DNA of 64,000 bases from Amoeboaphelidium occidentale (lineage: Eukaryota): assembly GCA_023515795.1 (NCBI GenBank), contig JALGPX010000037.1, forward strand, positions 1-64,000, given 5' to 3'. Within the stretch, counting starts at the first letter, position 1; each line of letters starts with the position of its first letter. Shown one piece after another: positions 1 to 63,461 of this stretch. A program made the position numbers and the translations under genes. The notes beneath the pieces are model-generated. The model was not told the origin of the DNA. It did not search any database and was given only the letters and a program-made list of their open reading frames with translations.

Positions 1-194
1 GCTCGTTGTGTGATCATGAACTGGTTCAATCTCGATTCTGGTCGATCAAGAGTTGCAACAATAACAACTGCTGGACACGCTGGAATCGAGATGTCAATGC
101 AGCCAGGAATATCATGCGCGTTTTCCTTCATATGAATACTAATGGTGGTTACAGGCCTGAAGCGTTCCGAAGGGGAAACCCGCATGGTAACTGA
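1..194 (+). CDS. Fanzor/TnpB-family RNA-guided nuclease, C-terminal fragment (5' truncated by window edge)
   Basis: (C)SLC...CNNNNC zinc ribbon followed by WNRDVNAARNI (RuvC-III) and a G-x-RP-x-x-F-x-R tail typical of Fanzor1. Confidence 0.85.
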   Translation, partial: SLCDHELVQSRFWSIKSCNNNNCWTRWNRDVNAARNIMRVFLHMNTNGGYRPEAFRRGNPHGN

Positions 195-327
195 AACAAC
201 AACAGCCTCATGTGGTCATGGTGGAGAAGTCTAGGCGGAGGCAGCCAAAGATGACTCTCATGAAAGCCATGATCAGCGATAGCTCATCACTGTAGTAATA
301 TGGTGATGGGTGCTTTCGTGTACAGTG
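195..327 (+). ncRNA. Candidate Fanzor omega-RNA scaffold / element right end
   Basis: 9-bp stem 213-221/267-275 and 13-bp stem 282-294/299-311 closed by a GUAA tetraloop; several G-U pairs work only on the + strand; lies directly 3' of the Fanzor stop. Confidence 0.55.
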
Positions 328-424
328 TTTTTCTTGGAATTGATCAAGGTAATTTTTTATTTTATTTTGATCGCGTTGCTTACTTTCAGGAAAATACTGT
401 AATAATAAGATGCCCTCCGTGATT

Positions 425-1475
425 TCAAATTTGTATCGAAATGGAAGCTTGACAATATGGACACGTACTTATTAGAGTATTAAAGCGCCTTCTTGTGGTA
501 GGTACAGAATTACACCATTCTTTTATGCATTCATGATGAAACCCTTTGCTGCAAGTATTGCATTCAAACTGCGTATTATCAGTTTCAGTCAGACAAATAC
601 TGCATTGTTGTTCAGATGAACTTTGTGTGATATCTACATTTTGCGTTCTAAGTTTCAAATCAAATAAGTTCTCTAAGTTAACGTGGAGCGGCTTCGAAGC
701 CTTCCATGAATTCTTATTCGCATTCATCTTAGATCTCAATCTTGGAACCTCAGACTCTGGACCAAAAAGATTTATCTTGGGCATCGAAGTAGCGTTTTCT
801 TGCTTTACAGTTATTTCAGCTGTGACCCTGCTTTCTTTAAATAATAATTGTCTGCTTAAAGAATTTGTAACATGTTCGCGCTTCATGTAATCATCCAATT
901 CGCGCAAACAAGCCCAAGATTCTTCATAAGAACGACAAGACGCTTGATAACTGTCGTGCAGTGAAGCTAATCCAACTGAACTTTGGCTTTGCTTAAACTT
1001 CCTGGTGTTATCAGTGAAATGAGGCAACACTGAAGATGTCTCAAGAGTTGTTTCGCCAAGTTCGAAATCAACTGCAGCCTGGACCCTTAAAATGCCAGAG
1101 TTCCTGCTTCTATAGATTAAAGTAATATTCCGCAAATCCGTAGAAACATGCTCAATATTTTCCCACCTTATGGCCTCGAGATCGCAATTTAAATGAGTCA
1201 AGAAATCCAGACATGCTTCAGCTTTCAATGAGTCTGTTGAGCAAGGGCTGAAAATCTTGTTAATTTCTGCCTCTAAGTCCTCTGATGAGGAGTGTCCCTT
1301 TAATTTCTAAAGGATTATTCTTCCGGATTCAGAGTAGCAGTATTACCTTGGCTAAATCATGCTGGCCCACAGAAACGCCTAAACGGAGTGGCTTCAAAAG
1401 GCTCTCAGAGGATGCTATCACTGGGCTACCATGAACGAATAGAAGAAAAGTATTTGAAACAGGATCTATATTCAT
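425..1475 (-). CDS. FANCL: FANCL-like E3 ubiquitin ligase
   Basis: C-terminal RING CSIC...CSKGFHHECIKEW...TRRRFNTLISTCPYC preceded by an RWD-like region; one short GT-AG intron near 1308-1347. Confidence 0.8.
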
Positions 1476-1483
1476 CTGGCTTG

Positions 1484-2374
1484 TTACACCCAGTTTCTGA
1501 CGATGAAGTCTTGTATTGAAAACACAATCGAGGAAGACAACACTACGCGCGAAAGCCTTGGAGTTGTGCCGGCCCAGAAGCTGAATACAGTTTCTTTCAT
1601 GAATATCTGTCTCGCACAATCTAGTGAGCCTGCATACTGTTTAGCATTCAAGCCCTGCATTCTAGTCTTTACAACATCGATGGGCATTGTCAGAAGTGTC
1701 GATGTTGTACCTGCGATTCCACCACTAATAAAAGAACGAACAGTTTTGTTCATTGAGTTATTTGGGTCAAGACTTGACCAAATACCTTGCATTTGAGCAA
1801 ACACAGTAAATCTTATCGCCGAATTCGCCCCCTGTCGAGCCATCGTTGGAAATAAGCCACGATATATACCCGCAAATCCTTCCTCTTTGAAGATCATGCG
1901 AGTACCATGAATTAAGCCTCGATATCTTGGAGAAGCTTGATTCTGATCTTGGATCAGCTTGGTCTTGATAGTTTCGGTTGGCGTAACAGCGAGAACAGCC
2001 TCCGTCATTCCTGCGGCAAGTCCAGCTAACATCGAGTGATAAGACTTTACATCACTCTTGTTCTTTGGAAATATCAGCTCCGAATAATGATGATATGAGT
2101 AAAATCGTATACCGGCTTTAGCAAATGTTCCAACAACAAGAGTCGACAAGCCACGATACAGCGCGAGTACGCCTTTCTCTGATACTGTTCTTTTGATTAC
2201 ATCAATTGGGCCTTTGTACTTCACAGCCGCGTCCAAAGCTTTTCCTGATTGTTGCAATTGCAATTGAGTCTTCACGAATTCCGTAGGAAACATAACCGTG
2301 GCTTCTATGGCTCCCGCTATTCCTCCCGCAATTAAATGCTTGTACGGAGACTTTTTTGGATTAGAAGAAGACAT
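1484..2374 (-). CDS. CTP1: Mitochondrial citrate (tricarboxylate) carrier
   Basis: Three PxD/ExxK carrier motifs; PTEFVKTQLQL, VTPTETIKTKLI, RQGANSAIRF. Confidence 0.88.
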   Translation of the reverse strand: MSSSNPKKSPYKHLIAGGIAGAIEATVMFPTEFVKTQLQLQQSGKALDAAVKYKGPIDVIKRTVSEKGVLALYRGLSTLVVGTFAKAGIRFYSYHHYSELIFPKNKSDVKSYHSMLAGLAAGMTEAVLAVTPTETIKTKLIQDQNQASPRYRGLIHGTRMIFKEEGFAGIYRGLFPTMARQGANSAIRFTVFAQMQGIWSSLDPNNSMNKTVRSFISGGIAGTTSTLLTMPIDVVKTRMQGLNAKQYAGSLDCARQIFMKETVFSFWAGTTPRLSRVVLSSSIVFSIQDFIVRNWV

Positions 2375-5292: not shown

Positions 5293-6928
5293 TCAAACTC
5301 CAGAATTAGTCAAAGACAACACACATTCAGAAGAATCGAATGCAGTGAATGCGAGTTGAGAAGAATTCTGGGAAAAAGACATTGTCGACCCGTCTGAAAC
5401 ATACTTTGATACCATTAAAAATCGATCACTCGATGCGCTATCGTTTCCAGGTTGAAACTTTGGAATGTTAACAGCGCAGAGCATTGGCCAGAAATTCGCT
5501 AATGCCTCAAAGAAATGTTTCTTCAGCAGTTGTTTCGATTTTCTCTCTTCGCGTGTCAATAACTTCAGCTTTTCTTCCCAGAACTTGGAAAATCCAAGTA
5601 AAACATCTGAACAGTTAGATATCCGCAGCATTATTGAAACAGAGGGAAGACATGTAGGATCCAAACAAGGCTTCTCTTTTTTATGCATTGTAGCATCATA
5701 GAGAATTTTCCTCATAGTTGATAATACTTCAATAGATGTCAAAGGCGCAATAAGAGTTCTAGGTAACGTACTAAAAATCAGAACATCGAAGTTCATAACT
5801 ATACCTCAACTGCTTTATAAGGCTCTGGCTGAACTGCCAACAGTTCACAATTAAACGCGGAGATCTTTCCTGTGACCGTGCAAGTAATGAAGACTTTGTT
5901 TGATCAGTAGAGTTCAGAGGACTCGCTGGCTCAAGTGGTGTCCCACCAAACAGTTTAATTTCGTGCTGTTTAGAGTCGATAAGTTTCCCGTTAGACTGAT
6001 ATAGTGGCAGCAAACCCCAGCCGCAAGATGTTTCGATGTACTTCTCTTCCTGGGTTGTTGACATGACTATTACCAATTCAAACAACAGATTGATACCATG
6101 GCCAAGCTCGTTACACCGTAAAAATCCAGCATTTGGTTCATTCCGCGAAAATAGCGATGAATTCTAATTGTAAGACCATATTAACGAAACAACCTTCAGT
6201 GTGCACTTCCATTTGCTTGGAGTCTGATTATCGAATATCACTGGTACCATGAATACATTTCCGATGATCTTTATCTTATCAAATAAGCAAACGTTAATGT
6301 ATCTCCCTTTAACTTTGAAATCTGTTGACGGGAATGGAACTGATTTAGCCGCGATAACAGAGAATGCCAAATTGCATGAAGTATCATTCGCCATAATCTA
6401 AGATCAGCGAAACCATTTAAAAAATAACCTTTCCAGTTTTATGATCAACATCGAAGTCTGTGAACGAGAGACCATCAGCAGAAACCTGAGGGAAAATCTG
6501 ATCAGATAATCTGCCTTTTCCTGATGCCAAATATTGACTAACGGATGATGGCCTGAATCCTGTTGGAACATTTTTAAATGAACTTGCAGCTAAAGTTTCC
6601 GTAGAAGCGTTACCTAAAACGATATCAATAAAATGAAACTGGACAGTTTACGCTTCAGAGCTGTACTTTGTTGATTCTGTTTCGCTTCAGATGCCTGAAG
6701 TTGATATTCTGCTTCAAGTAGCTTGACAAATGATTTCGGGACATATCCTTCTTCCTCTCCTAGCCCCTCCATGATATCTTCCTTTGTGGGCAGCCTTTTT
6801 ACGAGATACCATTCAATATCATCCATGTTCAGTATGATCAGCTTGTCTCCCTGATTAAGATCGATCTCTTCCTCGGTTATAGCATCATAATCATACAAAG
6901 CAACTGCTTCAATATCTTTTGTGGGCAT
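5293..6928 (-). CDS. NPHP1: Nephrocystin-1-like ciliary transition-zone protein
   Basis: N-terminal SH3 (ALYDY...EGYVP) followed by NPHP1-type motifs LFEL...SCGW.LLPL...IKLFGGTP and STLP.TLI; multi-exon. Confidence 0.8.
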
Positions 6929-9601: not shown

Positions 9602-11877
9602 ATGTCTATACGAAATAAATGGAAGAGCTCAACAGCGTTATCGTTGGGCTCAAGGGAGAATGCTGCGTTGAAGAGCACATCGGCAAGTTCAAGTTCTGTG
9701 TCAAAAGATCCTGTAAAAGTAACATATGATTCGATGGGTTTCAACTATTATAGGCGTTACGAATGAGGATAGCCACCCTTCTTCTAAGGAATCAGCTCAA
9801 CCTACTTGCAGCTCTATGTCAGAGCACATTTGTGGGTGATGCAGCAGCTGCTGTGGCGAATTCGATAATAGGTCTTCTGAAACAGATGCGAGACGGTGTG
9901 CCGGACATATTCGTTCGAAGGATTCTGAAGACCAAGATTGTAATTTATGGTAATATCATACGTGATGATGTGATACATAATTGTTTAGTGTCCAAAGGGA
10001 GGAAGATGGCGGATATTCTTAGAGACAACAGGTTCCTTGTTCCGGAATAAGGTTCTAATAGTTTAGCATGTCTACGATGATACTCACTTCTTATGCAAGG
10101 ATGCTTGGAACGCAATTCCTGACTGATACCCTGGAAAATCAGCTAAAAGATATCATTAAATACATTGGAGATAGCAATGCCTCGGAGAATAGCGATGGCC
10201 CAAGTGAAGATGCCAACAAGAAGATGTTAGAAGCTGCTTTATTGTTACTCAATGCCATAATTGAAAATAAGGCTAAGATGCCGCGGCAATTCAGGCAAAT
10301 ATGCCGATTCGTGAAGTTGGAAGTACACAATGTGATATCTAACCCTCCACCGAAAAGACTATCCAGATCCACTATTGACTCTGACGAGTCGCCCTCTAAA
10401 AGAAGTTACATTGTTGGCAACATTGCTAGGCGAAAGCTTAGTAATCTCATTCACGCACCACTTAACCCAAACTCGATCGACGAGCTAGAAGAAAGTCAGG
10501 AAAGCACNNNNNNNNNGTGATATCTAACCCTCCACCGAAAAGACTATCTAGATCCACTATTGACTCTGACGAGTCGCCCTCTAAAAGAAGTTCCATTGTT
10601 GGCAACATTACTAGGCGAAAGCTTAGTAATCTCATTCACGCACCACTTAACCCAAACTCGATCGACGAGCTAGAAGAAAGTCAGGAAAGCACAGCTCAAA
10701 CTAGTCAAGAAGATAACGTGGAGAAAATTGGGCATCCTGTAATGATGTCAGCTCCTGCTATACCTCTTGGAAAAGTTGATGAAGAAAGTCGATCATCACA
10801 AGCGACGCCTAAAGACACGTCTTTGGATATTCAAGCTCATGAAAGTAAACATGCATTGGCACAGGCAATAGTTTCACAACTAAATGGAGATGGATTGTTG
10901 CCTTCTCCTACTGAAGAAAAGGAAAGGGCAGAATTAGAAGATCTAGCTGATGATGACAACGCTTTGACAATGCCAGAACGAATGGTTGGCACTATCATAT
11001 TTCTCCGATTCTTTGTTCCAGCTATAACTGCTCCGGAAAACCACGGAATGCTTCAGGGAAAAATCAATAATGCAATTAGGAAGGGTCTCATCAATGTTGG
11101 CAAAGTTTTGAATGGATTTTGTAGTGAGGCGGATTTCAAGCAGAAAGATCCAAACTGGGGTATCGTTAATGAATTTATAGTTGAACACAGACCGAAAGTT
11201 AAGAATCTTATCAGCTCTATAACAGATGATGAGGTAATGTTACGCTTACTCAAAGTAATCTTTAGACACTGGACCGGGCTTATGTCACTAAAAAACTTGG
11301 AGAAGAAGTTGATATTAAGGATGTTTTATCCGAAGATACATACTTTGCAAGAGAGCTAGATGAAAATCTATCTTTAGCAAAAATATCAGACAATAACATT
11401 GAAATCGACGAGCATTTATTAATCTACTTGGCTAAATCTGTTCACAGAATGGAAAAAGACATGAAATCCCTTCTTAAACTAATACCGGAAGAAGAAGGTC
11501 TCGGTGTTATGGATGCCTTTTATGAACTCAAAACTGAACTGGACACTTATAATCAACTCATCACGCAGCCTGTAAAAGGGCCAACGTTCTTTTCAAAAAT
11601 AGGGAAGCGTTTCAACACCATTAGAATGTCATACTCTAGCGCCTTCTTCAACAGCCCAAAATCAAAGAGCAGCGATGATGTGTCGCATATAGGTAAATAT
11701 TTCCTTGTTAGTATTGAAATCTTAGCTAAAACTCAAGACATCGCCGTTGCTGAAGAAAGAAGGGGAGGAGGATCAACTGACACTACAACCTCGCAAATAG
11801 TTCCTAATATTACAGCTAAACATGGAAAATCAGCTCACAATCGATTATCAGCAGCTACTTATGAACCAACTGGATAG
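9602..11877 (+). CDS. RasGAP-domain protein (contains an assembly gap and duplication)
   Basis: ILRDN(S), KMPRQFRQIC, IIFLRFFVPAITAP RasGAP signature; multi-exon. Confidence 0.82.
10332..10692. repeat. 176-bp direct duplication flanking an N-gap (probable allelic assembly artefact)
   Basis: 10332-10507 and 10517-10692 differ at 3 positions. Confidence 0.9.
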
Positions 11878-17329: not shown

Positions 17330-17948
17330 ATGGAACACCGTACAGAACTTCAGGCCTTTGTTTCAGCGCTTCTTAAATTGGAAGAGTCCCTAAGATGCAG
17401 TTTATGGTAAGCATTTACGTTTTTCGAAGTCTTACAGCGAAGCCATCAGTTGTTTTACAATCCTCATACGATTAAGTCGTGTGGACACACGTTTTGCAGG
17501 TATCCCTTCTCTGTTTCAAGCTAACAAAAAGGAAATGCATAACNNNNNNNNNNNNNNNNNNNNNACAGCGAAGCCATCAGTTGTTTTACAATCCTCACAC
17601 GATTAAGTCGTGTGGACACACGTTTTGCAGGTATCCCTTCTCTGTTTCAAGCTAACAAAAAGGAAATGCATAACATCATATATTGGCGCCAAGTGTCAGT
17701 GCCCTACGTGTCAACTCCCAGCATATCTGGAAGATTTGTCTAGAAGTAGACAGCAGGATGCTATTGTCAAGAGCTGCAAGAAGATTCGTTGCAAAATAGC
17801 AGGTTCCGTGTATGTTTCAGACGATTCAAGCCCGTCTGCTTTTTATTCATGTACATCTACTCCTGCTAGTCGAAGTGATCATTACAATGATGCCTATGAA
17901 TCTCCTACAAAACGACCAAAAAACAGCCTCAGCAGAGGTCCCAAATGA
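17330..17948 (+). CDS. BARD1-like RING-only protein (spans gap and duplication)
   Basis: Spliced LEESLRCSLC...CGHTFCRKCI...CPTCQLPAYLEDL..SRQQDAIV. Confidence 0.65.
17434..17674. repeat. 110-bp direct duplication flanking an N-gap
   Basis: 17434-17543 vs 17565-17674 differ at one position (cat/cac). Confidence 0.9.
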
Positions 17949-24130: not shown

Positions 24131-24432
24131 ACTCAAGACGCTACGCCATTGCCTGATAAGCCGTGGATTTAAGCTTAGCTATCCCATCGCTCCATCAGAG
24201 CCCTTTAATAACACATCCTTTTCTATTTCCCGAGTCGAAACGATGCCTAAGAAAAGAATCGTGTACAGCAGNNNNNNNNNNNNNNNNNNNNACTCAAGAC
24301 GCTACGCCATTGCCTGATAAGCCGTGGATTTAAGCTTAGCTATCCCATCGCTCCGTCAGAGCCCTTTAATAACACATCCTTTTCTATTTCCCGAGTCGAA
24401 ACGATGCCTAAGAAAAGAATCGTGTACAGCAG
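24131..24432. repeat. 141-bp direct duplication flanking an N-gap
   Basis: 24131-24271 vs 24292-24432 differ at one position (ctccatc/ctccgtc). Confidence 0.9.
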
Positions 24433-61365: not shown

Positions 61366-61773
61366 AGGCGGTTGAGATCTGAAAAATCTGATGTTCTGTG
61401 ATACGTAAATACAACAGCGGTTCAGCCATGATACACCAGAACCGATCATAAAGAGACAATAAATATTGAATGATTATCACTTTATAGAGCATTCCTTACA
61501 TGACTCTATATGTGATCATACCTGTATTACCTAAATGTAGAGTATCTACAGAGAATTTTGACTGAGTGGCTCCTCTACGATCTGTCCTTGGAACCCTTGT
61601 CCTCAACAAAATAAAATGCAGGCTCTGCAGATCTCTAGATCGTCTTTTGGGTGACCATACGCTATCGCAGTCCACGCTTGACTGTTGAAACTGCACAAAC
61701 TGCTGCGTGATTCGTCGAAATTTTCACACCGCTAAAACGCCCAGACTGTCGCACTGTTTCGGTTTTTCGAGAG

Positions 61774-63461
61774 ATGACTTCAAAGAATTTCATTGACGAC
61801 GAACAGAAGGCTTTTGACGAGAGGGTCAAGGTGATCAAGAAATGGTGGGCATCAGATCGTTTCAATGGTGTAAAGCGTCCTTACACTGCTGAAAGTGTTG
61901 CTGAGTTGCGTGGTACTTTCGAACAGTCATACGCTTCAAACCAACAAGCAAAGAAGTTATGGTCCCTGTTGCAATCGCATCACAAGGCCAAGACTGCTTC
62001 CCACACTTTTGGTGCGTTGGATCCTATTCAAGTTGCTCAAATGGCAAAGTACATTGAGACTGTTTATGTTTCAGGTTGGCAATGTTCTTCAACTGCTTCA
62101 ACTTCAAATGAACCTGGTCCTGATTTGGCTGATTATCCTATGGACACTGTACCAAACAAGGTTGAACATCTGTTTTTGGCTCAGTTGTTTCATGATAGGA
62201 AACAATATCAAGCAAGAATGAGTGTTTCAAAGGAAGAACGCAGTAAGCTTGGCCCTGTTATTGATTTCCTAAGACCAATTGTTGCTGATGCTGATACTGG
62301 ACACGGCGGTATCACTGCAAATATGAAGTTGACAAAGATGATGGTTGAGCGTGGTGCTGCTGGAGTTCACATTGAAGATCAGGTAATTTGCTTTTTATGT
62401 ATCTAGCTTATGTGTAGGCTGCTGGAACAAAGAAATGTGGTCATATGGCCGGAAAGGTATTGGTTCCAATTTCTGAGCATATCAATCGTTTGATTGCTTT
62501 GCGTTTGCAATGTGACATTATGAACACTGAAACCGTTATCGTTGCCCGCACTGACTCTGAAGCTGCAACATTGATCACTTCCTCTATTGACTATAGAGAT
62601 CATGCGTTCATTCTTGGAGCTACTAAACCAGTTGAGCCGTTGGTAAAAGTTTTACAAGATGCCGAAAATGCTGGTAAGACTGGTGATGCATTGCAAAAGA
62701 TTGAAGATGAATGGTTGGAGAAGGCACAGCTGAGATTGTATGGCGATGCCGTAACTGATGCATTAAAGAAGGCAGGAAAAGGCGACAAGGCTATCAAGGA
62801 ATGGCAAGAAAAGTCACAGCTTATTAGTCACGCAGATGCTGCTGCATTGGCTAAAACTATGGGAGTTGAAGTACACTTTGACTGGGATTCTCCAAGAACC
62901 CGTGAAGGCTTTTATCGCTACCAAGGTGGAACCAAGTGTGCAATTAATCGTGCAGTTGCTTTTGGACCTTACTGCGATTTGTTGTGGATGGAAACTAAGA
63001 AACCAATTAGGGCTCAAGCAAAGGAGTTTTCTGAGGGCGTTTTAGCTAAACATCCAAACAAGTTGTTGGCTTACAATTTATCGCCTTCATTTAACTGGGA
63101 TGCTGCTGGTATGACTGATCATGAATTCGAAACCTTCATCAAAGACTTGGGTAAAATGGGTTTCTGTTGGCAATTTATCACTCTTGGCGGTTTCCACTGC
63201 AATGCATTGTCTATTGACACCTTTGCAAAAGACTACGCAACAAGAGGAATGGCTGCTTACGTTCAAGGTGTTCAGAGATTGGAACGTGAAAGAGGTGTTG
63301 AAACTTTGCAGCACCAGACCTGGAGTGGTGCCAATTACTATGATCAATTGATCAAGGTTGTTCAAGGAGGTATTGCCTCAACTGCAGCCATGGGTAAGGG
63401 TGTAACTGAGTCCCAGTTTTCTGAAGGACCAGCAGAGACTAAGAAGAGAAAGGTTCAATAA
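61774..63461 (+). CDS. ICL1: Isocitrate lyase
   Basis: [38 protein letters not shown]; one intron. Confidence 0.97.

Follow-up and report, generated by a model that had tools for sequence, protein, structure and literature searches.

A Fanzor1 C-terminus at the TA-flanked right end of a multicopy element in Amoeboaphelidium occidentale, with a predicted guide RNA

Overview

The window analyzed here is a 64,000-nucleotide stretch of the Amoeboaphelidium occidentale genome (contig JALGPX010000037.1, positions 1 to 64,000). Its first 194 bases very probably encode the C-terminus of a Fanzor1 protein carried in a TA-ended, likely non-autonomous Tc1/mariner element of about 25 copies, the right end of which is predicted to give rise to a guide RNA targeting the empty site. 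Judging from the motifs of near-identical proteins, it is most likely that some copies of the family have a complete active site. The features referred to below are as follows.

1-194, + strand: 3' end of a Fanzor1 ORF, encoding a C4 zinc finger (TNB), RuvC-III and the tail; stop codon at 192-194
90-92, + strand: codon of the RuvC-III catalytic Asp (WNRD), aligned to SpuFz1 D606
213-275, + strand: predicted hairpin 1, which may form the 5' portion of the omegaRNA or its precursor; z -2.8 for 210-277, with 0 of 200 shuffles as stable
276-319, + strand: predicted hairpin 2, with a 13-pair stem (282-294/299-311); z -4.3 for 278-320
321-401, + strand: predicted 81-nt terminal hairpin, in which the last 18 bases pair with an internal inverted copy (321-339); z -6.9
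384-401, + strand: right end of the repeat, ACTG then TA, likely a terminal inverted repeat plus TA target duplication, placed by depth and flank divergence
402-416, + strand: predicted guide segment from flanking host DNA, placed by analogy with SpuFz1

The Fanzor1 fragment and its class assignment

Frame +3 reads SLCDHELVQSRFWSIKSCNNNNCWTRWNRDVNAARNIMRVFLHMNTNGGYRPEAFRRGNPHGN, 63 codons at positions 3-191 followed by TGA at 192-194, and the remaining two forward frames over the fragment are interrupted by stops. Three codons specify Cys (9-11, 54-56 and 69-71), with that for Asp in the NRD motif following at 90-92; all 20 rows of alignment A1 have this Asp in the corresponding column (D456). 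The window edge cuts through the first Cys of the CxxC pair, which is supplied by comparison with protein P0001 (62 of 63 residues identical to the window peptide), in which KMC precedes SLC. A search of 1.84 billion representatives returned 155 proteins matching the fragment at E ≤ 0.001 (best 1.6e-25). The Pfam Cas12f1-like_TNB model falls below its cut-off on the 63-residue fragment (E-value: 0.0047) and is above it on P0001 (35.1 vs 26.3 bits). Matches between the short fragment and gp41 in the PDB (E ≥ 0.048) were rejected as chance. At the level of sequence comparison, it is confirmed that the Fanzor reading of the frame at 3-191 is not a chance match. The initial annotation had described this frame as a Fanzor/TnpB C-terminus with some 63 visible codons, a zinc ribbon and, in NRD, the catalytic Asp of RuvC-III; the frame itself, its 155 relatives, the profile and the fold all agree with this description.

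Profile A2, built from 68 sequences of relatives, was compared with the PDB and scored highest with SpuFz1 (153.8 bits), followed by GtFz1 (139.7), PpFz1 (112.6), the mimivirus Fanzor2 (45.4) and ISDra2 TnpB (18.3). The three Fanzor1 proteins (113-154 bits) match across most of the profile, whereas the match to Fanzor2 (45 bits) is limited to the finger, in keeping with the large helical REC region that marks Fanzor1. Similar results were obtained with an AlphaFold model (pLDDT 93.2) of P0157, a 485 aa relative described below: SpuFz1 was placed first by Foldseek (E-value: 3.8e-17, TM 0.54) and was the best match in VIA-align (Z 18.4, 427 residues aligned, rmsd 6.9), and the top 50 VIA rows were all Fanzor, TnpB or Cas12-type proteins, as for a TnpB/Cas12-type RuvC fold. 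A structural comparison had been proposed as a means of refuting the Fanzor reading, and its outcome, a best match to SpuFz1, was obtained with the model of this near-identical protein. Because SpuFz1 is the best match by both profile and predicted fold, the family was assigned to Fanzor1. On the strength of the profile, the modeled fold and a published FZ1 label, the window ORF is a Fanzor1, nearer to Fanzor1 than to Fanzor2 or TnpB.

Active site residues in near-identical proteins

Of 11 candidates in a search for longer proteins, 8 were matches, and those that are named are A. occidentale hypothetical proteins (78-85% identity). P0001 is a 354 aa protein from a 1172-nt contig, while P0157 comes from a 1775-nt contig and is 86% identical to the window peptide; the two are cluster mates (325 of 350 residues identical). 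Each is a single open frame with an acidic triad (D126, E284 and D321 in P0001; D261, E419 and D456 in P0157) that aligns to SpuFz1 D383, E541 and D606 in the profile alignment. P0001 also fits the superfamily pattern (D126, TS at 287-288, C291/294/309/314, RD at 320-321), given in the available text of Bao and Jurka as D-X(125,275)-[TS]-[TS]-X-X-[C4 finger]-X(5,50)-RD (PMC3627910). In both proteins, the RuvC-II Glu lies six residues before the C4 finger (E284 to C291 and E419 to C426). According to the accessible part of PMC13565253, the RuvC-II Glu of Fanzor1 proteins is rearranged to just before the zinc finger, and P0001 and P0157 fit the rearranged active site described in the sections available of Jiang et al. 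(PMC10530073). It had been anticipated that a genuine Fanzor would carry a RuvC-I Asp and a RuvC-II Glu in the motif xDEyyTSk: both residues are present in the near-identical proteins, but the motif is PEFRTSK rather than the one expected. Because the contigs of P0001 and P0157 are separate, these two proteins inform on the coding capacity of the family and not on the DNA upstream at the window locus.

From the two closest subfamilies, 14 NCBI A. occidentale models were inspected (P0002-4, P0007, P0161-3, P0175, P0312 and P0314-9, less one counted twice), none of which is clean and full-length: all are partial or internally duplicated, as either decay or a collapsed assembly would produce. More distant A. 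occidentale Fanzor1 families are also found (P0323/P0173, P0171, P0176 and P0027; 32-46% identity to P0157), and in P0323 (712 aa, from Logan) all three of the catalytic motifs lie within a single open frame.

A multicopy element with its right end at TA

Contigs of four (X1-X4) of the 18 listed sequencing runs were aligned to window positions 1-1500. Run X1, possibly the one from which the window derives, has single contigs with depths of 2664 over 1-71 and 2899 over 65-356, compared to 106 for the flank contig; in X2 and X3, 261-331 is found at a depth of 462 and 476, respectively, compared to about 10. By contig depth, which is a rough measure of copy number, the repeat has about 25-27 copies. 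Depth is down to single-copy level after about 412. In the four runs, loose ends (24 of 55 rows listed) enter different flanks at 401-406, directly after ACTG-TA (396-401), and also at 412. A sister subfamily is present as well, with loose ends at 37, 114, 149 and 205 that match P0003-type proteins. Neither the ORF nor the element end recurs in the window (the best match to the end being 16 of 20 bases at 5699), and the left end lies beyond the window.

The element is thus multicopy and has a defined end followed by TA, with a minority of contigs continuing to 412, and is likely a non-autonomous transposon of the Tc1/mariner superfamily. TA-flanked Mariner-type elements carrying only Fanzor1 are described in the available text of PMC3627910. 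The proposal that the nuclease is transposon-borne is upheld by the repeat depth and the TA-flanked right end, and the other genomic copies that the initial annotation had suggested seeking are indicated by the 25-27-fold depth. A simple model in which the element ends at the TA does not explain why X1, X2 and X3 each have 3-4 contigs that match on to 412, 11 bases beyond the TA; this group at 402-412 could represent a subfamily with a longer end, the flanks of left ends, an overrun of the alignment or insertions into sites resembling the guide.

Contigs of X2 and X3 start at 376-377 within the element end and continue into the flank with a difference of about 3%. As the insertion is common to these strains, it is not brand new. 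There is little or no cover of 150-205 by the window's subfamily in X2-X4, which hints at a strain-specific expansion; contigs cannot prove absence, so this was not counted. One X3 record (record 21) represents a haplotype, approximately 14% different, that matches 424-929 only from 424, with 167 other letters replacing the element end, and is a possible empty site.

Given these data, two alternatives bear on the integrity of the window copy. The stronger, which we consider a serious possibility although not the favored one, is that the copy here is a relic, either broken or truncated at its 5' end, similar to the partial and ghost Spu-1 loci; the Fanzor1 label would be right, but this copy, and perhaps the majority of copies, would make no enzyme and serve at most as a guide RNA donor. 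This would be compatible with the family-level Fanzor1 reading. It would account for the partial or internally duplicated public models and fit the shared, and hence not brand new, insertion in X2 and X3, as well as the proportion of full-length Fz loci in S. punctatus (only 19 of 42 in the portion of PMC10432273 available). However, collapsed repeats also yield broken gene models, the 63 visible codons have neither a stop nor a frameshift and keep all conserved residues, and P0001 and P0157 are open throughout. Furthermore, an X1 contig matches 1-71 exactly and reaches 333 nt further upstream at 25-fold depth.

The second alternative, which appears unlikely, is that 1-380 is partly a product of assembly, with unique flank extended into a collapsed repeat consensus and the true copy belonging to another subfamily or being a shorter derivative. 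The unique X1 contig begins at 381 while the repeat is on separate short high-depth contigs, X2 shares the insertion yet has a contig over 96-248 that differs by 26 letters and 3 gaps, and the near-duplicated stretches in the window and the duplicated gene models are indicative of imperfect assembly. Against this, the window differs from the high-depth X1 contigs by two private letters (77 and 138), like a real single copy.

Predicted omegaRNA

The region that separates the stop codon from the element end (195-401) folds to a predicted -70.1 kcal/mol (z -4.9, equaled by 0 of 200 shuffles) with three hairpins. Hairpin 1 includes 4 G-U pairs. Hairpin 2 is a candidate counterpart of stem-loop 1 of Fanzor1 omegaRNAs, and a natural variant of it in X2, X3 and X4 has lost 3 bases per arm while keeping a 10-pair stem. 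Random gap placements equal this variant in 65 of 1000 cases for helix length and 126 of 1000 for energy (with one extra substitution left out), and the paired deletion is suggestive only as support for hairpin 2. None of 80 control windows of 81 nt goes beyond a z-score of -2.1, as against -6.9 for the terminal hairpin; this hairpin folds to -24.6 kcal/mol on the + strand and -9.1 on the - strand and is a candidate for the guide-proximal omegaRNA stem. Over 195-401 as a whole, G-U pairs make up 14 of the 69, and the energy reached by the - strand is only -40.9 kcal/mol. Such G-U pairing and the poor fold of the - strand would be expected if selection acted on a sense RNA, but not for a DNA palindrome. 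Based on these folding predictions, the 3' noncoding hairpins are likely an omegaRNA scaffold.

The SpuFz1 RNA has a 75-nt scaffold with 14-15 variable nt (PMC10432273, available text), and in the accessible parts of PMC10432273, PMC11423790 and PMC13565253 Fanzor1 RNAs are 75-150 nt in length with a stem before a 14-15-nt flank-derived guide, TA included. It is from this published layout that the guide is predicted at 402-416. An Rfam scan of 1-600 gave 7 matches, all far below their thresholds. In X4, the GT-AG intron of the neighboring gene (1307-1346, 40 bases) is spliced, so this run looks like RNA. It contains the Fanzor ORF and 3' pieces at a depth of 34-67 compared to 8.5, in contigs that give no strand or level, and provides a weak hint that these pieces are transcribed.

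It is quite unlikely that the palindrome at 321-401 is a separate miniature inverted-repeat element, or that the true end is at 412, with the hairpins being DNA-level repeats that have no role in a guide RNA. The bases at 321-339 are an imperfect inverted copy of 384-401, both starting TA-CAGT, the summed depth peaks at 351-400, and the contigs reaching 412 in X1-X3 (3-4 per run) would suit the more distant end. The arms differ by + strand G-U pairs (5 in the hairpin at 321-401 and 14 in the region), though, and the far worse folding of the - strand favors selection on the sense RNA; no loose end enters at 321 among the 24 of 55 listed, and published Fanzor1 RNAs, in the text available, have a terminal stem right before the guide.

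Host and remainder of the window

The XPB helicase encoded in the window is identical over 768 of 768 residues to A. occidentale MP638_006192, and the host is Amoeboaphelidium occidentale, in agreement with its placement in an early-diverging fungal lineage from the letters alone. A gene for a FANCL-like ubiquitin ligase (428-1306, - strand, identified with Pfam) is convergent with the element. Near-exact direct duplications of 110-176 bases, closely spaced, are found at 10332-10692, 17434-17674 and 24131-24432, at least two of them beside N runs; these are probably scaffolding artefacts. The isocitrate lyase gene (61711-63458, + strand) is split over two adjoining ORFs, probably due to a short intron.

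That the ORF is a bacterial TnpB, Fanzor2 or giant-virus gene present through contamination or recent transfer is scarcely credible: the 63-residue fragment alone is most similar in the PDB, weakly, to TranC and a TnpB-derived design, and distant relatives occur in viral contigs, but the full profile favors Fanzor1 by more than 100 bits, a pattern scan of prokaryotic genomes gave 22 candidate stretches with 0 confirmed, the best 80 of 168 viral loci (from 310 candidate stretches) are 21-30% identical, and contigs in X1, X2 and X3 join the element end to host genes, so that such an origin is refuted by these host-joined contigs, the profile preference and the XPB identity. A metagenome scan gave 13 loci from 171 candidate stretches (27-39% identity), with a similar 3' end in none of the 13, and a close relative at the DNA level came from none of the metagenome, viral and prokaryotic scans. 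One viral contig shares 18 bases exactly with the right end, a match rejected as chance, there being no further similarity.

Transposase partner

A Pfam scan identified no transposase among the 43 window ORFs, which are housekeeping genes or without assignment; the linked transposase that the initial annotation had suggested looking for is thus not among them. Two JGI metagenome proteins, P0008 and P0320 (contigs of 1671 and 3577 nt, respectively), carry a DDE_1 fragment in frame with a Fanzor tail, with DDE_1 scores of 18.7 and 20.8 bits that are under the Pfam cut-off of 22. Their tails match window positions 36-245, and P0320 reads on into sequence resembling 195-245. We take the DDE_1 fragment to be pogo-type; pogo is a member of the Tc1/mariner superfamily, a group with a known link to Fanzor1. 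These sequences hint at a pogo-type transposon that shares the right end of the window element. P0008 and P0320 are possibly chimeric, or may derive from a deleted autonomous partner with the same right end. No paper pairing Fanzor with pogo was found in main texts.

Proposed mechanism

By analogy with SpuFz1 and TnpB, transcription through the right end would generate an omegaRNA with its scaffold within 213-401, including the TA, and its guide from 402. This structured guide RNA would direct the Fanzor1 nuclease to the empty insertion site, where the ribonucleoprotein, if it behaves like those of SpuFz1 and TnpB, would recognize an AT-rich motif ending in TA beside the target. Once a DDE transposase provided in trans had excised a copy, the cut made where the site was left vacant could be repaired from a copy still holding the element, such that copy number would be kept or raised. 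According to the available text of PMC13565253, homing has been demonstrated for TnpB and IscB, with that by Fanzor listed as lacking direct demonstration; homing by Fanzor is a proposal in the discussion of PMC10432273, as far as its accessible sections go.

A more ambitious reading is that this is a live, recently amplified Fanzor1 on a pogo-type DDE transposon, with the longest scaffold of those compared (approximately 190 nt, three hairpins) and with loci that share the first 11 guide-flank bases because they were seeded at guide-matched sites. We regard this as very improbable. If true, guide-matched seeding would mean that RNA-guided spread has left its trace in a eukaryotic genome.

Comparison with known systems

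Supplementary file 3 of Saito et al. 2023 contains 38 Amoeboaphelidium rows, including 26 for A. occidentale (21 FZ1, 3 FZ2 and 2 unlabeled) (PMC10432273). One of these, KAI3657602.1 (row 1430, node337, FZ1, A. occidentale), is a 279 aa partial model with approximately 12 residues fewer than P0001 in the middle, and its last 63 residues are 62/63 identical to the window peptide; the sister models P0002, P0007, P0314 and P0171 are likewise labeled FZ1. By this identity, the window Fanzor is already known at the protein level, and with 26 rows for A. occidentale there is nothing new in a Fanzor from an early-diverging fungal relative. The file also includes long Amoeboaphelidium Fanzor-like entries (rows 630 and 1394-1396; 783-1219 aa). 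As it gives the protein and coordinates only, with no element end, RNA or activity (PMC10432273), the small additions made here are the right end of the element and the RNA prediction. No main-text paper on Fanzor with Amoeboaphelidium or aphelids was found, although bioRxiv supplements or Repbase may describe the element. There was no match in the two Jiang 2023 supplementary files, and the available main text of PMC10711439 makes no mention of aphelids. The benefit is modest and practical: because its right end is defined, a scaffold is predicted and the 25-copy family is homogeneous, this Fanzor1 would be an easy ortholog in which to test for a new TAM, and the many near-identical copies in a cultured host could serve for asking about the roles of Fanzors in a native genome. 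The N-terminal part of the long Fanzor-like entries presumably resembles a FEN1/XPG-type nuclease domain, as judged by eye.

SpuFz1 (SPu-1) of Spizellomyces punctatus is the best profile and fold match to the window family (PDB 8GKH, 9CEY). Both have a D-E-D triad in which the Glu lies shortly before the C4 finger. Like SPu-1, as described in the available parts of PMC3627910 and PMC10432273, the window element is multicopy and TA-ended, has no adjoining transposase and has a structured 3' region abutting its right end. The two differ in that the proteins share only 17-18% identity, SpuFz1 has D-P-N where D-P-G is found here, and the distance from stop codon to element end is 207 nt with three predicted hairpins here but about 80 nt with two stems, in the text available, for SpuFz1. 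The element end sequence is also different from that of SPu-1, and the RNA described here is a prediction.

The Fanzor1-bearing Mariner elements PUl-4 and PGv-1 are TA-flanked and carry Fanzor1 alone or with a DDE transposase (PMC3627910, available text), whereas in the present case a partner is only hinted at by DDE_1 fragments below the Pfam cut-off. In the accessible text of PMC11423790, GtFz1 of Guillardia theta differs from the window family in having Asn at the third catalytic site and a locus without inverted repeats, and PpFz1 of Parasitella parasitica has a large RuvC insertion that is absent here. Both of these proteins nevertheless share with the window family the Fanzor1 architecture and a D-P-G RuvC-I, and the omegaRNA of GtFz1 is long (150 nt) and multi-hairpin, as predicted for the window element.
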